A stretch of DNA of 29,447 nt from a virus (lineage: Duplodnaviria > Caudoviricetes): IMG/VR virus record IMGVR_UViG_3300017910_000564, positions 1-29,447 of that record; one strand, 5' to 3'. The notes beneath the pieces were generated by a model. That model was not told the DNA's origin. It saw only the letters and a program-made list of their open reading frames with translations, and did no database searches. Position numbers and translations under genes: made by a program. Positions 12,956-29,446 of this stretch are shown in pieces; the stretch's first letter is position 1, and each line of letters starts with the position of its first letter.

Positions 12956-13266
12956 TATGCTTTACTCCTCTGTTTCTTCGCTTTGTTACGCTTGGAAATA
13001 GCTGCTGCCTTCTTCTTGGCATCAGCCTTGGATGATGCTCCCCACGCTCTTAGCGAAAGAAGCAACCGGGTTGGCTTGCCCTTGGCGTCACGCTCTGGTC
13101 CGGGCATGCCTCCCATGCGGGCAAGGAAGCTTGCACGCCGGGGGTTGTCACCGCTTTTAACAGGAGCCTTGAGGGTGCCACCTTTGTAAGAAGCACGCCC
13201 CTTGGCGTTCAATCCGCCCTTGGGATTCTTGCCTGCCTTGCGAGTCCATGCGGGTGTCTTAGCCAC
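12955..13266 (-). CDS. Highly basic phage protein (DUF6321-like)
   Basis: 103 aa MAKTPAWTRKAGKNPKGGLNAKGRASY...RRASFLARMGGM, a recurrent phage family. Confidence 0.7.
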   Translation of the reverse strand: MAKTPAWTRKAGKNPKGGLNAKGRASYKGGTLKAPVKSGDNPRRASFLARMGGMPGPERDAKGKPTRLLLSLRAWGASSKADAKKKAAAISKRNKAKKQRSKA

Positions 13267-14446
13267 CTAGAAACTCCCCTGCTCGTTTCAGATACTGTTT
13301 GGTTTCTTCGGGCAGGTCTTCGTAGTTCGAACCTGCATCGCGCCAGTCGGCAGCATTGGTCGGCCCCCAGTTGTAGGCCACCAGCTTTTCAAGCGGCGTG
13401 GTAAATTCATGATGCTCGGAGTAGCCACTCACAAAAGTGTCCGCCAGCTGGCGAGACTTGACCGGGTCCTTGACATCATCAGGTGTCAAATTCTGAGGGA
13501 CGCCATATCCAAAGTCCGGGAGAAACTTCTCAAGGAACTGATACGGACCAAGCGCCCCATCCTTGGAGCGAGCATTGCGAGATGCTTCCAGACTTAAATG
13601 ACCAGTCTCTGCATGCCGGATTGCATTAAGTAGCTCTTCTTGAGACAGCCCTGTATTCAGCAACGGCGCAGGAGCAGCAGAGGCTGGCCTTCCAAAGATT
13701 GCCGCAAGCGCACTATCAAGAAGACCCTTGCGCTCACTATCCATTGGAGTGCTGGGGAATACCGGGTCCTTGATATCAGAGCCGTCTTCAAACCAGCTGA
13801 CACGCGGAGACGGGCGGAAGTCATTCACCTCATCCTCTGGCGGGATGCGGAACCTTACATGCTGCGCGCCGCCCTCTTCGGGAGGAACACTGTCCTCCAT
13901 GAAAAGCTCCCCGTAAGCAAAGGCCATATCATTGAGACTGCCGCTGGATGCAGCACCCATCATGGTGCCGACCGTACCTTTATCCATCCCAAAAATTTCT
14001 AAAGCTGAAGCAAGGTTGGGGCTGTTCTGCTTCAGCTGCGCTTGAAAGGCAGCAGGGTTAGAACTGAAATCATAAGTGTCCGTGACATCAAAGCTCCCGT
14101 CATCGTTGCGCTTGATGGTAAAGCGGCCAAGAGTCCAATTGAGATTGGCAGCATCAGCCTCAGAGATAACCGCATTATCCCCGAACAGACCGCCAGCCAA
14201 CTCATCGATCATGTCGTAATCAACGCCGCCGCTGCGCAACAAATCCTTGCGCTCTTCATCATCTGCCTCGGCTATGCGCTGCTTGGTAATCGCTTCACTG
14301 CCGTAATAGTGATTGGCAACGACACGAAGCAGAGCAAGGAACTCAGGCGACACCGAATCATTGTCGATGACATCGCTGTCCATAAACTCTGGAAGAAGCG
14401 TGTTAAACGCCGCCTTGAGGAAGGTTCTTTGATACTGCTCAAGCAT
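13259..14446 (-). CDS. Protein with C-terminal lytic transglycosylase (SLT) domain
   Basis: AIRHAETG (catalytic Glu), SKDGALGPYQF, VAYNWGP and LPEETKQYL motifs; acidic N-terminal region of unknown function. Confidence 0.75.
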   Translation of the reverse strand: MLEQYQRTFLKAAFNTLLPEFMDSDVIDNDSVSPEFLALLRVVANHYYGSEAITKQRIAEADDEERKDLLRSGGVDYDMIDELAGGLFGDNAVISEADAANLNWTLGRFTIKRNDDGSFDVTDTYDFSSNPAAFQAQLKQNSPNLASALEIFGMDKGTVGTMMGAASSGSLNDMAFAYGELFMEDSVPPEEGGAQHVRFRIPPEDEVNDFRPSPRVSWFEDGSDIKDPVFPSTPMDSERKGLLDSALAAIFGRPASAAPAPLLNTGLSQEELLNAIRHAETGHLSLEASRNARSKDGALGPYQFLEKFLPDFGYGVPQNLTPDDVKDPVKSRQLADTFVSGYSEHHEFTTPLEKLVAYNWGPTNAADWRDAGSNYEDLPEETKQYLKRAGEFLGG

Positions 14447-14589: not shown

Positions 14590-14964
14590 CTAGCTTAGAT
14601 CGATCGACACCTGTATCTCACCTGCATGCAAGTGCATGTGCTTGTCCGGAGACTTGAAGCCAGCCCTGTCCAGTATGTCCTTGCTTGCTTCCAGCTGAAC
14701 GTACTCAGACTTAGCGCCCTGTGCTAACTGCATCACCTTCGCCGCCGCACTCGTAGCGTTCAAGCCTATCGTCTCACTCACTCTCTGCATCATGTATTGC
14801 TGAACGTGTTGCAGCTTCAAAGCCTTGCTGGCACTCACTCTCCCGGCTTCGCCCTTGGCGTACCCGGCAGCGTGCGCCGCGTCTTTGATACTGCATCCCG
14901 TAGCTACAAGCGTATCAACCAGTGCTGTTTGCTTATCTGTCAGCTTGCGTGTTGTGACGTTCAT
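14590..14964 (-). CDS. terS: Terminase small subunit
   Basis: LTDKQTALVD...AAHAAGY HTH start and SEYVQLEASKDILDRAG C-terminal motif; upstream of terL. Confidence 0.8.
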   Translation of the reverse strand: MNVTTRKLTDKQTALVDTLVATGCSIKDAAHAAGYAKGEAGRVSASKALKLQHVQQYMMQRVSETIGLNATSAAAKVMQLAQGAKSEYVQLEASKDILDRAGFKSPDKHMHLHAGEIQVSIDLS

Positions 14965-15049
14965 CTTGTGCGCCTCGTCGCCTTGCTCCTCGGGTCCATA
15001 ACCCCCCCTGTCATCCCCCCCTTTACTACTTGCTGCAGAATCACGGTGT

Positions 15050-15600
15050 CAACGCACATCGGCCTTACGGCGGCTGCCTGCGCAGCGTTTTGTCGGCCTT
15101 ACGGCTGCTGCTTCGCAGCGGCGGGATGCGCAGGTGGGCCGGTTGCCTCCCGGCCCGCTGCTTACCCGCGATAGGTGCGCTCTCACCGCGCCACAATTCC
15201 CTGTGGCGCTGTCCCGCTCAGGCCGCTCGGGCCACACAACAATCCTCCACACGGCGCATGTGTCATGGCTCGTCCGCGTGGCGGGTCGAGCAATGCCGGA
15301 CAACGGCGTCGAGCCGTTGCCCGACATGGACACACGCGCCTGACCACAAACGCACAGAATCCCCCCGCCCCTTGGCTCTGCGCCAAGGGGTCAAGGCGCA
15401 ACAGGGCAGGCCAGCTGCCCCGTTACACCTTGATCCGCGCTGGTAACGCGGCTGTCCCTGTCTGTCGTGCAGTCCAGCGCGGACGGCCACGCGCCACGGT
15501 GCGGCGCGTCTGTGGTCAAGCCCAAACCCACTTGGCGGGTTTGAGCTTGAGGGGTCTGTGCGCTTGCGGTCCTACCGGAGATTGTAGCTAGAAGCTACGC
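15050..15600 (-). ncRNA. Candidate large structured RNA or ssDNA element
   Basis: More than 10 nested inverted repeats in a GC-rich gap with no credible gene. A.C mismatches on the plus strand read as G.U on the minus strand. Confidence 0.45.
15059..15120. repeat. Two-copy tandem repeat, each copy holding two mini-hairpins
   Basis: TCGGCCTTACGGCGGCTGCCTGCGCAGCG (15059-15087) and TCGGCCTTACGGCTGCTGCTTCGCAGCG (15093-15120). Confidence 0.75.
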
Positions 15601-15631
15601 AGCAACAAGTCATAGACACAAGGAGTAGATC

Positions 15632-16168
15632 ATGACTGACACACTTAACTTCACCGACACCATCGTTGACAACTGGGACATCGAGTCTCTCGACGACGAC
15701 AAATACCGTCACGACCAGCACGGCAACGAGAACCATCGCTTCAACATGGGCGACAAGTATGGCCTTGGCGGTGTCCTCGACCAGCTTGCCTACACCCTCG
15801 ACAAGAAGAAGAAGTACCTCGACACCGTTGAGGCGCGTCAACAGCAGGAGCATGACACGAACGGCACCGAATCAGCCTTGGCACACCGCCTTAGCAGCGA
15901 TGTCAGGAAGGCAGAAGCCGCGTTCAATAACTACCAAATGCTCTTCGTCGGCTTCGTCGATCTCTATGAAGCCATCACCCAAGACATCTGGTGCGACGGT
16001 GAGTTCCACGAGGACTACGGCCGGGCATGGTTCGTTGAAGAGAAGGAGCGCATGGCGACCCCAAAGAACGAGTACCAAGCTCCCACCAAGAAGGAGATGC
16101 AACGCCGTCGCGAGATGATGCAACAGCGTCTTCGCGATCGGCAGACGCGCACTGCAGTCGCAGGCTAA
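15632..16168 (+). CDS. Hypothetical early protein (first gene of the rightward arm)
   Basis: 178 aa with AAGGAG RBS and strongly C-ending codons. Confidence 0.8.
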   Translation: MTDTLNFTDTIVDNWDIESLDDDKYRHDQHGNENHRFNMGDKYGLGGVLDQLAYTLDKKKKYLDTVEARQQQEHDTNGTESALAHRLSSDVRKAEAAFNNYQMLFVGFVDLYEAITQDIWCDGEFHEDYGRAWFVEEKERMATPKNEYQAPTKKEMQRRREMMQQRLRDRQTRTAVAG

Positions 16169-16177
16169 CAACCAACA

Positions 16178-16199
16178 GCGGGGGGCTTCGGCCTCCCGC
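16178..16199 (+). other. C(UUCG)G hairpin between early genes
   Basis: GCGGGGGGC TTCG GCCTCCCGC, with no U-tract. Confidence 0.6.
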
Positions 16200-16207
16200 A
16201 CTTACAT

Positions 16208-16543
16208 ATGGAGTATGCAATGACAAACATCACAGAAGAATCATACAACCCCTTCAACATTCACCACCGTATCGGATACCCGAAGTTCAACAGCACAGGC
16301 ATCACCTTCCCTTGGCACCACAAAGCCAACGCAGCAAAAACCCTCTGGCGCATGGCAAAAGTTCTAGACGTGCCTTTCGACTATCATTCCATACACCGTG
16401 CCGTCAGCCTCACCCTCGACAGCAGCCGGTACTCATTCCGACTCGGCGGTTTCTGCTTCGACATTCCCATCGGCTTACAGCGTGCTGCAATCCGCTGCGA
16501 CATCGGCGACCTAGCTGGCGTCGAGATCGAACGCGACCTATAA
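16208..16543 (+). CDS. Hypothetical early protein (start may be 16220)
   Basis: 111-aa ORF; GGAG precedes the ATG at 16220. Confidence 0.7.
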   Translation: MEYAMTNITEESYNPFNIHHRIGYPKFNSTGITFPWHHKANAAKTLWRMAKVLDVPFDYHSIHRAVSLTLDSSRYSFRLGGFCFDIPIGLQRAAIRCDIGDLAGVEIERDL

Positions 16544-16549
16544 CATCAC

Positions 16550-16567
16550 GGGGTGCTTCGGCACCCC
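16550..16567 (+). other. C(UUCG)G hairpin
   Basis: Perfect stem GGGGTGC TTCG GCACCCC, with no U-tract. Confidence 0.6.
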
Positions 16568-16697
16568 AACTCCCCCACACCCAACGACACTAGGCAGGCC
16601 AGCCCCGCTGCGCGCCGCTGGTCCCCACCCCGCCTTCGGCGACCCCGTGGGTTCCCCGCTTTCTCGCTCAGGATTTCCCTGTCAAACTCATTTCATT

Positions 16698-16734
16698 TTG
16701 CATTTATGCAGTTTGCGATTATGCTTTTATGCAG
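16698..16734 (+). promoter_or_regulatory. Promoter with two operator-like sites
   Basis: TTGCATTTATGCAG (16698-16711) and ATGCTTTTATGCAG (16721-16734) overlap TTGCAT-N16-TATGCT. Confidence 0.65.
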
Positions 16735-16742
16735 GAGTTACC

Positions 16743-17243
16743 ATGAACCATAACGAACATAGAAAACAGAATGAACTGCTTGCTCAGATTGTCATCGCTG
16801 TCTGCGAGACAACCAAGTCACCAACCTCACTTGTATTAGGTATACGCCGACACCGCACTGCCATGTGGTCTCGCTGGCTCGTGTACCTGATTGCGCATGA
16901 CTACTGCAACCTGTCTTACACAGGCATTGGTCATGCGTTAGGCCGTGATCACACAACAGTGATGCACGGAGTGCAACGAGCGTCAGAGGAATTCGAACGC
17001 AATTCTGAATTTCGTGACGCCTACATCCAAGCAACCATGGAGGTCAGACAATGGATGGAACAACAACACTCTCGGACTTCGACTTCCCCGTCGAACTGGT
17101 TAGCCTCTCAACTTCTGAGATCGACGGATGTTCGTATCCGGTACCCACAAACATGGCGCGTGCCGTTATACGGACAGATACAAATGACATACTCGGTGTC
17201 CATGGCTCCCGATACAGCATCACCTCACACTCAGATGTCGTGA
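16743..17243 (+). CDS. DnaA C-terminal (domain IV)-like HTH protein
   Basis: R..VYL...LSYTGIGHALGRDHTTVMHG signature of DnaA domain IV; AGGAG RBS before ATG 16743. Confidence 0.8.
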   Translation: MNHNEHRKQNELLAQIVIAVCETTKSPTSLVLGIRRHRTAMWSRWLVYLIAHDYCNLSYTGIGHALGRDHTTVMHGVQRASEEFERNSEFRDAYIQATMEVRQWMEQQHSRTSTSPSNWLASQLLRSTDVRIRYPQTWRVPLYGQIQMTYSVSMAPDTASPHTQMS

Positions 17244-17905
17244 ACGCCACCGTTGATGCGGTGAAGCAATCACACATCAGCCATGACTGGGACATGACAA
17301 CAGATGTGTATGAGAATGGTGCGCTCATGAAAGGCACCATTCAGTTCAACGATCTGGTGATTGAGCCAGAGGTTGGTGACTTCGTACGCTTCGATGCCAA
17401 CTTCTGGAATTCATACAACGGCCAGTGGTCTATCCAGATTGTGGCAGAAGGTCGGCGTCTGTGGTGCTTGAACGGATGCAGCACACCACACTCTGTATCC
17501 AAGACATTCAAGCGGCACACTGGCTCAGTCAACATGGATCAGGAAGCAGGCAAGCTTGGTGCTGCACTGTCAGTCTTCTTTGATCAGAAGGCTGTATGGC
17601 AGCAGTACATGAAGCAGCCCATCGGCAACATGCAAGCTGAAAAGTTCCTGCGTGAGCAGCTATGCCGTTACCCAGCCAAGTCCAGCCACGCCAAGCAGTT
17701 CAACGACAAGCAATCAGATGTCTTGTACTCACAGTGGCTGACTGAATCGACACTACTGGGACGCAATGCATGGGCGCTTTACAACACCATGACCCATTGG
17801 TCCTCACACCCAGACACAGCCAAGCCATACAACGCAGAGCGTGACCGTTCCAACAAGGTCGCAACCGCTCTGCGCAGTGAAGCTTGGAAACAACTGACAG
17901 CTTAG
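17051..17905 (+). CDS. DUF932/DUF945-family phage protein
   Basis: VIRTDTNDILGVHGSRY, NSYNG...RLWCLNG and NAWALYNTMTHWSSH motifs; GGAGG RBS. Confidence 0.8.
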   Translation: MDGTTTLSDFDFPVELVSLSTSEIDGCSYPVPTNMARAVIRTDTNDILGVHGSRYSITSHSDVVNATVDAVKQSHISHDWDMTTDVYENGALMKGTIQFNDLVIEPEVGDFVRFDANFWNSYNGQWSIQIVAEGRRLWCLNGCSTPHSVSKTFKRHTGSVNMDQEAGKLGAALSVFFDQKAVWQQYMKQPIGNMQAEKFLREQLCRYPAKSSHAKQFNDKQSDVLYSQWLTESTLLGRNAWALYNTMTHWSSHPDTAKPYNAERDRSNKVATALRSEAWKQLTA

Positions 17906-18062
17906 GGAGGGGATAGAGAAGCGGCCCGGTCGGGAGTCCGGTAGCTAGATGACCAGCGTGCCTCAGCACGTTAACTGCAGCCCCTCCGGGGTACATGGTC
18001 CCTTTCATTACTGCAGATGGCATCGTCCCGACATTTTCACCAGCCAGACATTGGAGGTCACA

Positions 18063-18353
18063 ATGGCTTATGTATCACTTGCTGCCAAACCCGGACACAT
18101 CACAGTCCAACGGGTTGTACATCCCGGATTTACATCCATCACCTTGAAGGTTGTCGATCAGAACGGCAGCGAATTCAATCTCAGTATCAGTGATGGCACC
18201 GAGACACCACGCATCACAGAACACGCAGCCTACATCACGGACTTGCAGTGCGAGGACAGTGACTATCGTGCGCGGTATCCTTTGTTCTTACCGCAGATCA
18301 CTGACGCTGACCTGCATGAACTGAATCAGGAAAGCGAGGCTCTTTGTGCCTAA
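18063..18353 (+). CDS. Hypothetical protein
   Basis: MAYVSLAAKPG... preceded by TGGAGGTC RBS. Confidence 0.65.
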   Translation: MAYVSLAAKPGHITVQRVVHPGFTSITLKVVDQNGSEFNLSISDGTETPRITEHAAYITDLQCEDSDYRARYPLFLPQITDADLHELNQESEALCA

Positions 18354-18531
18354 GTATGCAGTGAATGTGACGGTGTCTGTCATGCTTGACTTCATCCCCG
18401 CAGTCTCAGAGATGCACGCCAAACAGCTGGCTCATACCGAGTTGGAAAGGATCATCAATGAAAAAGCGGAGTACCAAGTTACCGAGACAGACATCTATAG
18501 CGTCACGTCGGAACCCTATCGCGAAGACTAA
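18346..18531 (+). CDS. Hypothetical protein
   Basis: 61 aa with GTG start after GAGG, overlapping the previous stop. Confidence 0.55.
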   Translation: MPKYAVNVTVSVMLDFIPAVSEMHAKQLAHTELERIINEKAEYQVTETDIYSVTSEPYRED

Positions 18532-24666: not shown

Positions 24667-24711
24667 TTGGTAAGGGTGAGGTCGCGTGTTCGAATCACGC
24701 TGGCAGCACCA
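24667..24711 (+). other. attP core: 3' half of tRNA-Thr(GGT)
   Basis: TT GGT AA GGGTG AGGTC GCGTG TTCGAAT CACGC TGGCAGC A CCA runs from the anticodon loop through the T-arm to CCA. The 5' half is absent. It lies 48 bp after the integrase. Confidence 0.9.
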
Positions 24712-27826: not shown

Positions 27827-28011
27827 CAGTCATAAACGCGTGTACGTTCCTCATTGACCGTGACCGGCTGGCAATATGCCGTGATCTTCTGGCCCTGTTT
27901 ATGAAGCGTCTGTGCGTACCAGACACAGGACTTCAATGATCGGAAGTACATATCATTTGAGACGATCTCACCACTCACAAACATGAGTAATAAGAAGGCG
28001 TGGATCATCAC
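27826..28011 (-). CDS. Hypothetical small protein
   Basis: 61 aa with hydrophobic N-terminus and two Cys; coupled to neighbours. Confidence 0.65.
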   Translation of the reverse strand: MMIHAFLLLMFVSGEIVSNDMYFRSLKSCVWYAQTLHKQGQKITAYCQPVTVNEERTRVYD

Positions 28012-28598
28012 AAGCTGAAGTGTTCAATATCTAACGTCCAGCCAGTAGCCAAATACTTGGTGCCATTCAGTGGCGGGTTGCCTCTGTGCATGGCACCCCA
28101 GTGAGCAGGGAACAAAACCAAACGGCCCCTGCGTGGCTCGCAACGTTTTTTGTAGTACAAAAACTCTGTCTCGCCGCCTTCGAACCCGTCATTCAAAAAC
28201 AATGACCAAGTGACAAGCCGATCACTATGGGTGCGGTCAAAGGCTTCATGATGCCATTTATGAAATCCGCCACCCGGGACGGTCTTCTGTAACTTGCATT
28301 GCAGATTCGCCAGCCTCTTATTGTTAAGGAAAGGGAATCTTTGTGCATAAGCTGGGAGTGCAACGCTTTCATAGCGATCAAGAAATGTACGCCAAAAATC
28401 GCAACAGTCACCGTGAGCAACATGATCGTGATCATGCAGATATAACTGCATGTCTTTTCTTTCATGGTCAGATGGGGAGGACATCGCCCCGTACTTATGG
28501 GCAAACCCAAAATCAATGAGCTTATCCATTTCTTCGATGACAGCTATACACTCGCTTGGAGAGAAGAACTCATCAATGACCATAATTTCATCTGTCAT
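28008..28598 (-). CDS. 2OG-Fe(II) oxygenase
   Basis: GGFHKWHHE, FLNDGFEGGETEF, LVLFPA..HRGNPP...KY. Confidence 0.88.
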   Translation of the reverse strand: MTDEIMVIDEFFSPSECIAVIEEMDKLIDFGFAHKYGAMSSPSDHERKDMQLYLHDHDHVAHGDCCDFWRTFLDRYESVALPAYAQRFPFLNNKRLANLQCKLQKTVPGGGFHKWHHEAFDRTHSDRLVTWSLFLNDGFEGGETEFLYYKKRCEPRRGRLVLFPAHWGAMHRGNPPLNGTKYLATGWTLDIEHFSL

Positions 28599-28601
28599 TG
28601 C

Positions 28602-29156
28602 TTACCTCCATCTTGGGCCATGAAACCACGCAACAAGTGATTTGCGTGTACCGCTTGTGACTGGTGCAACGCGGTGTCGAAGATAACTCGGGAACACTAA
28701 AACCGTGCCTTTGGCTCTGGCATCGGTTGGCGTTTGACATTCATCAAACTCAAACTCACCGCCTTTGTATTCAGACGAATCGCTTAGTTGAACTGTGATA
28801 GACAGCTTGCGATCTGCGTTTGTTTTCAACTTACCGTCTTGCTGCCAGTGAACATCGTGATGCCAGTCGTAATGGCCATTCTCAGTAGCGTGGTATTCAG
28901 TGAATTGTAGCTCCGCAACATTCATGACATCGACGCCAAAGGCATTGATGTTTGCCTGCTTAACAAACTCCCAAAGCCTATCTCTTATCCACTGATCTCC
29001 GATCCAGCGCACCTTGCTACTGCGAACTTGCTCAAGAAGCTGATCTCGATTGCTGACGGTCGCAGCATGTGCTTCTTCTGCTTCACCGCACGCAATGATT
29101 TGCTGAACGGTCTCAGGCGACAGAGCAGATCGAAAAAGTTGCCAGAGGTCTCTCAC
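28602..29156 (-). CDS. 2OG-Fe(II) oxygenase (PKHD/prolyl-hydroxylase type)
   Basis: HYDWHHD, RKLSITVQLS, YKGGEF and VFPSYLRHRVAPVTSGTRKSLVAW. Likely GTG start overlaps the upstream TGA. Confidence 0.9.
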   Translation of the reverse strand: MRDLWQLFRSALSPETVQQIIACGEAEEAHAATVSNRDQLLEQVRSSKVRWIGDQWIRDRLWEFVKQANINAFGVDVMNVAELQFTEYHATENGHYDWHHDVHWQQDGKLKTNADRKLSITVQLSDSSEYKGGEFEFDECQTPTDARAKGTVLVFPSYLRHRVAPVTSGTRKSLVAWFHGPRWR

Positions 29157-29446
29157 GGTTTGACTGGCCATGTAACATTGACCCACTCAGTCCAATCAAA
29201 ATCAGTGTCATCATAGCGAAGCGTTGCGTTAGGACTGTTTGCAGGCAAATCTCGCAAGGCTTGCCGGTAGTTAATTTGTTCGGTGGTCATGGACGGTGTG
29301 TCTTGCAAGGCCCAATGATCTGTTTCAGCCAATAGTTCATTGCGCCTTGCTCTTAGCGCAGTCATGCCATCAGAACCTGAGAAATCATCAGGCCGGACAT
29401 AGTCTTGAACAGCACCAAACTCGCCAGCAACGGCTCTTGCAAACAG
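29153..29446 (-). CDS. Tail fibre assembly/chaperone protein (partial, 5' end outside window)
   Basis: LRARRNELLAETDHW...YRQALRDLP...VTWPVKP; frame open to the window edge (LFARAVAGEFGAVQDY...). Confidence 0.8.
   Translation of the reverse strand: MFARAVAGEFGAVQDYVRPDDFSGSDGMTALRARRNELLAETDHWALQDTPSMTTEQINYRQALRDLPANSPNATLRYDDTDFDWTEWVNVTWPVKP

Follow-up and report, generated by a model that had tools for sequence, protein, structure and literature searches.

Promoters that act on single-stranded DNA have so far been described for conjugative plasmids, whose DNA enters as one strand. On the F plasmid, Frpo1 sits upstream of ygeA and ygeB, and Frpo2 upstream of ssb, as described in PMC9849209. 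According to PMC13037366, GNA triloops confer unusual stability on DNA mini-hairpins, far above that of the related RNA hairpin, and such triloops are found at the G4, ssiA and N4 sites. Weinberg et al. (PMC5737381) consider ssDNA and RNA motifs to be hard to separate bioinformatically.

The present study concerns a structured locus of a tailed phage. The window, i.e. the whole stretch of DNA that was analysed, is the 29,447-nt virus record IMGVR_UViG_3300017910_000564, which is 89% complete. Its source is a short-tailed phage whose head and tail genes are T7-like, and a Pfam and PHROG scan of its 51 ORFs also revealed genes for a repressor, an O-like initiator, a RecE-like exonuclease, an ERF protein and an integrase. 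The closest cultured relative is Pelagibacter phage Hödr (58% for terS, 65% for terL). The top matches for the two terminase genes (best 30 of 46 terL records) are Hödr, MEP301 and BcepC6B-like phages, and an assignment to the HTVC010P type was dropped on the basis of these matches. In MEP301 the divergent gap at terS is absent. We estimate that approximately 1,400 stretches in IMG/VR match the terS patterns.

The element occupies the gap between terS, encoding the terminase small subunit (14590..14964, minus strand; PF03592, phrog_2538), and a divergent plus-strand cluster. The first early gene of this cluster, g1 (15632-16168, plus strand; RBS at 15620-15625), encodes a 178-aa protein of no known family, for which comparison with PHROG, Pfam and protein structures gave no family and no usable structural match. 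The remainder of the cluster (16208..18531, plus strand) includes genes for a DnaA C-terminal HTH protein (16647-17243, plus strand) and a DUF932 protein (17051-17905, plus strand). The former is a stand-alone domain, which might compete for host DnaA boxes. UUCG-loop hairpins, which are typical RNA elements, follow early genes 1 and 2 (16178-16200 and about 16550-16567, plus strand). Elsewhere in the window, a lytic transglycosylase-like protein is encoded between terS and terL (13259-14446, minus strand), and a tandem pair of 2OG-Fe(II) oxygenase genes is located at 28008-29186 (minus strand). Just 3' of the integrase gene lies a partial tRNA gene (24667-24711, plus strand), presumably tRNA-Thr, which consists of the 3' half with its terminal CCA and is the probable attP core; ARAGORN detected no full tRNA in the window. 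A contig of one RNA run (X4) departs from the window at position 24667 into tRNA-like sequence.

Structure and covariation of the element

The branched, non-coding fold-back (15053..15600) lies on the minus strand, which is the template strand of the early cluster. All ten stems listed in a preliminary description of this DNA pair as specified there (10/10), and in the four long ones all 6 non-Watson-Crick positions are indeed A·C on the plus strand, equivalent to G·T or G·U on the minus strand. RNA folding of positions 15050-15600 gave -329.3 kcal/mol for the minus strand (z -9.94) and -296.1 kcal/mol for the plus strand (z -7.05), and in neither case was the value equalled by any of the dinucleotide shuffles (0/100). 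With DNA parameters, folding of 15050-15630 gave z -10.14 and -7.02, respectively. The shuffling check proposed in the preliminary description, run on both strands, therefore showed that both far exceed the shuffles, the minus strand more so. Tiling of the window into 53 segments of 551 nt, with just 2 shuffles per segment, identified the element as the most over-folded of them (excess of -73 on the minus strand and -49 on the plus strand; runner-up, -38). The raw energy gap between the strands (-33) is not unusual, the window-wide mean being -15 ± 15, and therefore only the excess over shuffles counts.

The earlier view that the element contains no credible gene held up: its three longest overlapping ORFs match 0 PHROG and 0 Pfam families, and in alignments to two related loci (L001 and L127) many gap lengths are not multiples of three. 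An Infernal search of Rfam, also proposed earlier, yielded 0 matches at the gathering score, including to the models of GOLLD, ROOL, OLE and pRNA, and 5 chance-level matches with E of 1.7 or more. Comparison with phage sequences by blastn produced only 2 chance matches of 27 nt, and a DNA pattern scan returned 27 loci, just 3 of which are homologs (already known).

The largest domain is multibranched and is closed by a long-range stem (15342-15358 / 15555-15571; 15342..15571, minus strand) that contains two G·T pairs on the minus strand and shows compensatory changes in L001 and L127. A side domain with two hairpins (15253..15340, minus strand) is mostly deleted in these two loci. Within the large domain, four helices form a conserved core (15388..15549, minus strand), found in six other sequences (L001, L127, L007, L008, L123 and L124) that represent roughly three or four lineages.

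The core alignment bore out the predicted covariation among relatives, with compensatory change in 10/43 named core pairs. Core pairing is kept in 95% of 294 cells, compared with 28-42% in slid controls, and RNAalifold detected compensatory-type changes in 13/50 pairs. Wherever the minus strand has G·T pairs at alignment columns 14-20, 48-54 and 123-153, they do not vary, which argues for selection rather than mutation bias. Over the whole element (211 predicted pairs, about 60 of them gapped in either locus), 17 double changes vs 15 broken pairs were counted in L001, and 21 vs 20 in L127.

Related fold-backs and the folding strand

Two sets of related regions were compared, both dereplicated at 80%: set 1, with 45 regions from a search with terS of the window, and set 2, with 25 new, low-GC regions from a search with terS of Hödr. 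The set-1 regions were bounded by the terS promoter-like motif. Regions that could not be delimited were left out (16 loci of the set-1 search and 36/86 of the set-2 search), and L124 was removed before set-1 dereplication owing to a wrong ORF call. In total, 69 relatives were used, and L017, which has a wrong start, is left out of the copy, folding, promoter-position and whole-promoter counts. The representatives are related to each other, and thus the counts overstate their independence.

Folding at least 15 kcal/mol better than shuffles (3 each) was observed in 65/69 relatives. The set-1 regions split into 18 sequence families, the sequence not being conserved clade-wide. In 48/69 relatives the fold is a rod, in which a non-coding inverted copy (the mirror arm) pairs with the upstream region and start of the first early gene. 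The inverted copies show 82% identity, with the coding part interrupted by one or more gap openings in 48/48, and most of them (37/48) reach a point 49-70 nt inside the gene. At least three clusters of first-gene proteins are associated with such copies, which are present in 38/39 members of the largest cluster, 5/5 of another and 0/10 of the window's own. The folds of this last cluster (10/69 relatives) are branched or end before the gene, and the gene-start copy is absent. Since the copy follows the protein family, the window carries a clade-wide fold-back in its branched form. The rod form is found in Hödr (OQ414635), with a DNA folding z of -17.

It is worth mentioning that the fold-back is present in four related genomes (G001, G003, G004 and W01) in which a match to the window's integrase is absent. 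Spread of a prophage by conjugation was disfavoured as a general cause, the integrase occurring in only 1/5 related fold-bearing genomes.

Mismatches within the stems point to one of the two strands. In the strand-symmetric stems of 45 representatives, G·T and A·C occur in a ratio of 40:14 on the template strand (8.6:7.2 in shuffles); taken individually, G·T prevails in 15 representatives and A·C in 3, with 27 ties. The corresponding ratio for the window is 7:0. Alignments of the inverted copies gave 281:60 for set 1 and 65:15 for set 2, which is independent (17/25 regions with a copy), and the g1 template strand has the larger excess stability in 57/69 relatives. Selection for folding of the minus strand, as suggested in the preliminary description, is supported by this bias, together with the covariation and the invariant G·T pairs. 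An excess of A·G in the copy alignments (321 vs 67 C·T) was not used as evidence for DNA, because it is gone when isolated mismatches are considered (16 vs 27).

Fold-back synthesis can give rise to inverted copies, and the arms might accordingly be by-products of template switching, regenerated by replication errors and devoid of function. Such an origin appears very improbable, given the compensatory changes, the invariant G·T pairs, the narrow range of copy end points and the excess folding in 65/69 relatives.

The strand bias also bears on the idea of a plus-strand mRNA leader, which would fold over the RBS of g1 and silence a toxic early gene until the RNA is processed. The mismatches favour the other strand, no plus-strand promoter scored above chance (6.55 vs 6.98 for shuffles, 45 representatives), a terminator-like site is present on the plus strand at 15073-15086, and in the window's lineage the fold stops short of the gene start. 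We regard this leader as quite improbable, even though folding of the plus strand, too, greatly exceeds that of shuffles (z of about -7) and the fold covers the g1 start in 48/69 relatives.

The fold, its position, its strand preference and its covariation were thus all observed, as was its presence across the clade: the element is a real, previously undescribed, clade-wide fold-back. In the literature searched, mostly outside subscription journals, we found no description of this element or of an ssDNA promoter in a tailed phage.

Promoter signals and the nature of the folded molecule

A conserved motif upstream of terS (15002..15058, minus strand) comprises TTGACA (15047-15052), an 18-nt spacer, an A-rich -10-like hexamer and two G7 runs. 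Column counts for the 45 representatives of set 1 revealed the same arrangement (TTGAC(A/G), about 18 nt, an A-rich hexamer and two G-runs), and Hödr-like phages have TTGACA-17-TATACT at the equivalent place, from which we infer that the motif is the terS promoter. As it sits between the element and terS, the element is not the leader of promoter-driven terS. The two G7 runs (15002-15021, minus strand), directly after the predicted promoter, are kept in set 1 and absent in Hödr-like phages; they may serve for packaging or pausing, or form a G-quadruplex. In several Hödr-like loci (L134, L141, L145, L147, L149, L151, L153, L157 and L158) 4-7 nt separate the end of the mirror arm from the terS promoter's -35 box. 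This box is itself paired in the fold predicted for Hödr, which suggests that folding could also silence terS.

On the side of g1, a candidate -35 box, TTGAGG (15547..15552, plus strand), lies 85 nt 5' of the ATG, where relatives have TTG(A/C). In set 1 this motif occurs in 14/44 regions at -90 and in 11/44 at -80 (1-8 in the other bins), the excess being less clear in set 2. The hexamer overlaps one arm of a hairpin with a 3-nt loop and an invariant G·T next to the closing pair (15516..15550, minus strand), and pairs with TTGACC (15519 to 15514) in the other arm. Mispairing in the clade peaks near -45 of g1. Scored with approximate matrices, the -10 box supplied by the mirror arm is better than that of the real strand in 22/35 regions (worse in 10) and 11/15 (worse in 3), its absolute scores being poor (means of -0.4 and 1.3). 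Whole-promoter scores were 5.0 for the mirror arm, 4.1 for the real strand and 3.4 for the null, compared with 8.3 for terS promoters.

Loop sequences were compared to see which kind of molecule they suit. The commonest hairpin loop of set 1 is C-GAA-G, and C-GNA-G triloops on stems of at least 5 bp occur 11 times vs 0.2 expected, in 6 sequence families. C-GNA-G hairpins were counted in 14/45 representatives. RNA-type tetraloops are near chance in set 1 (GNRA, 2 vs 1.4; UNCG, 2 vs 0.6). GCGAAGC was found 18 times in this set vs 2 on the opposite strand. No cUUCGg hairpin is present in its 21.5 kb of element sequence; in the flanking early-gene DNA these hairpins are distributed 18:0 in favour of the mRNA strand. 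The triloop excess was not replicated in the low-GC set 2 (2 vs 2; GCGAAGC, 5 vs 1). There are 7 instances of the reverse loop, C-TNC-G, in two families, and one family bears C-GNA-G loops on the opposite strand. The intergenic regions of L066 and L112 differ from most other families in that each has three C-GNA-G hairpins on the plus strand. The window itself has a single GAA triloop, in a GC-GAA-GC mini-hairpin with a 5-bp stem (15107..15119, minus strand) located some 510 nt away from g1; it also has a pair of GTAA loops, compatible with either RNA or DNA. When mismatch spectra and loop lengths were compared with those of controls (rRNA, RNase P/tmRNA and F intergenic DNA), noise prevented a distinction between RNA and DNA. 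Taken together, the sequence evidence leans towards an element that folds as DNA, as an indication rather than a proof.

The preliminary description had put forward a new large ncRNA, for which support was lacking: there is no clade-wide sequence conservation and no conserved minus-strand promoter, and RNA tetraloops are not enriched. A minus-strand RNA would start near 15575 in the window, or inside g1 in the rod types, and fold as predicted. Its role could be to divert RNA polymerase as a decoy, to regulate g1 as a processed antisense RNA or to bind a defence protein. The invariant G·U pairs and the covariation of the multibranch fold are equally expected of RNA, and the window has a promoter-like TTGTTG-16-TACAAT (15581..15608, minus strand) at the 5' base of the large domain. 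This sequence was not seen conserved in close relatives, however, and the best minus-strand promoter scores of the 45 representatives equal those of shuffles (7.66 vs 7.74). Moreover, no terminator-like site ends the element on the minus strand, the regions fall into 18 sequence families, GNRA and UNCG loops are not enriched, and the antisense arm of the rods would be sequestered by its own copy.

An expression search retrieved four RNA runs, whose word shares do not exceed 0.08; all are in the form of contigs, which therefore give no strand, start or level. Three contigs of one run (X1) are 100% identical to the window. One of these falls inside the element (15068-15247), as would suit a minus-strand RNA, but none of the three X1 contigs indicates a strand, and the remaining two map largely to coding genes. 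On balance, we consider a minus-strand RNA rather unlikely; if this reading holds, it would define a class by shape and position, not by sequence.

For a packaging RNA, another earlier suggestion, we found no support. A folded ssDNA signal for replication or packaging, i.e. a single-strand origin that primes the plus strand or an end-processing structure by the packaging site, agrees equally well with the DNA-type evidence (strand bias and triloops). The element adjoins the terS promoter and the conserved G-tracts, and the locus ends no more than 200 nt upstream of terS in 16/144 cases vs 1-9 in the other bins; this excess is ambiguous, being visible downstream as well (6 vs 0-4), and assembly may account for it. 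The 51 ORFs include genes for an O-like initiator, ERF and a RecE-like exonuclease, and none for a primase was detected. GC skew follows the coding strand in relatives (24/82 positive in the early part) and was therefore discarded as an indicator of strand displacement, to which it lends no support. Such a signal would leave unexplained why the mirror arm tracks the promoter region, RBS and first ~20 codons of the adjoining gene, and we judge it unlikely.

Of the three options in the preliminary description, an ssDNA structure (single-strand origin or hairpin promoter) fits best, and of its two forms we prefer the promoter, at about an even chance. The element would then be an Frpo-like ssDNA promoter of the early cluster, working as DNA and not as RNA, a proposal that we find about as easy to accept as to doubt. 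Once single-stranded, the minus strand would fold into a duplex promoter. Our prediction is that host RNA polymerase would transcribe the cluster from g1 to the DUF932 gene from this promoter, as it does from Frpo on conjugative plasmids. Among the three steps involved, folding as DNA rather than RNA is probably the best supported; the next is the putative role of the TTG hexamer near -80 as a duplex -35 box, with a better -10 box provided by the mirror arm. The least supported is exposure of the strand, which might occur by 5'-to-3' resection of the end of the incoming genome or by replicative strand displacement. End resection would expose the minus strand if the end is on the terS side, as it would be with P22-type headful packaging. 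The same transcript could prime complementary-strand synthesis, like that of Frpo. In the rod forms, though not in that of the window, a mirror arm reaching about +64 would hold the nascent RNA displaced until a ribosome loads.

We tentatively propose, with more doubt than confidence, that in an abundant clade of marine podoviruses the first genes are expressed from one DNA strand folded on itself, in a programmed ssDNA stage after entry. If this is true, a genome end or replication intermediate of a dsDNA phage would be deliberately exposed as ssDNA to switch on the first genes of host takeover, and in most members a co-evolving mirror copy would lend the non-template strand just until the first ribosome loads. 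The proposal is directly testable, because the cultured SAR11 phage Hödr (OQ414635) carries the rod.

Comparison with known systems

Like the cabRNA of staphylococcal phages (PMC10686824), the element is a structured sequence near the terminase genes. According to that source, cabRNA is transcribed from the terminase genes themselves, whereas the element is non-coding and located upstream of the terS promoter motif. GOLLD and ROOL, as presented in PMC5737381, are comparable to it in size, multibranched fold, covariation and location in phages. Unlike these RNAs, the element has no Rfam match and no clade-wide sequence conservation, no tRNA gene is found in the window, and RNA tetraloops are not enriched.

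The early hairpin promoters of N4 (PMC13037366) have a short stem with a GAA or GGA triloop on the early-gene template strand, close to the start site. A C-GNA-G triloop hairpin is found on that strand in several rod-type relatives, ~95 nt 5' of the first ATG, whereas the hairpin of the window is ~510 nt from g1 and set 2 shows no enrichment. The same source describes the N4 promoters as 5-bp hairpins used by a virion RNA polymerase, in contrast to the fold of 230-800 nt described here. No RNA polymerase gene was detected among the 51 ORFs, and PF00940 matched 0/5 related genomes in a search whose control matched nowhere either.

The closest resemblance is to Frpo and ssi of the F and ColIb-P9 leading regions. 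As described in PMC9849209 and PMC11541004, these are, like the phage element, non-coding imperfect fold-backs on the template strand before an early cluster. They also share the G·T bias on the folding strand and a DUF932 gene in the downstream cluster. In the F plasmid record the DUF932 gene is found at the place of Frpo1, the phage and F proteins being only distantly alike. Analysis of the F plasmid with the same scripts, as a control, revealed template-strand rods before ssb and ygeA, with 9 G·T vs 2-3 A·C. These rods end about 45 nt before the ATG, like the form of the window, whereas in most relatives the duplex continues into the gene for ~60 nt.

The differences are also clear. The element lies in a tailed dsDNA phage and not in the leading region of a conjugative element, no relaxase being encoded by the 51 ORFs of this 89% complete record. 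The form found in the window is multibranched, unlike Frpo, and canonical -35/-10 boxes are not clearly rebuilt, in a comparison made without Frpo's supplementary box assignments. Sequence similarity to known Frpo was not detected: blastn against 72,556 plasmids gave no match, and only 2/69 regions showed marginal matches (21-34 nt) to the F leading region. The analysis thus suggests that the element most likely works like Frpo, without being a member of the Frpo family.
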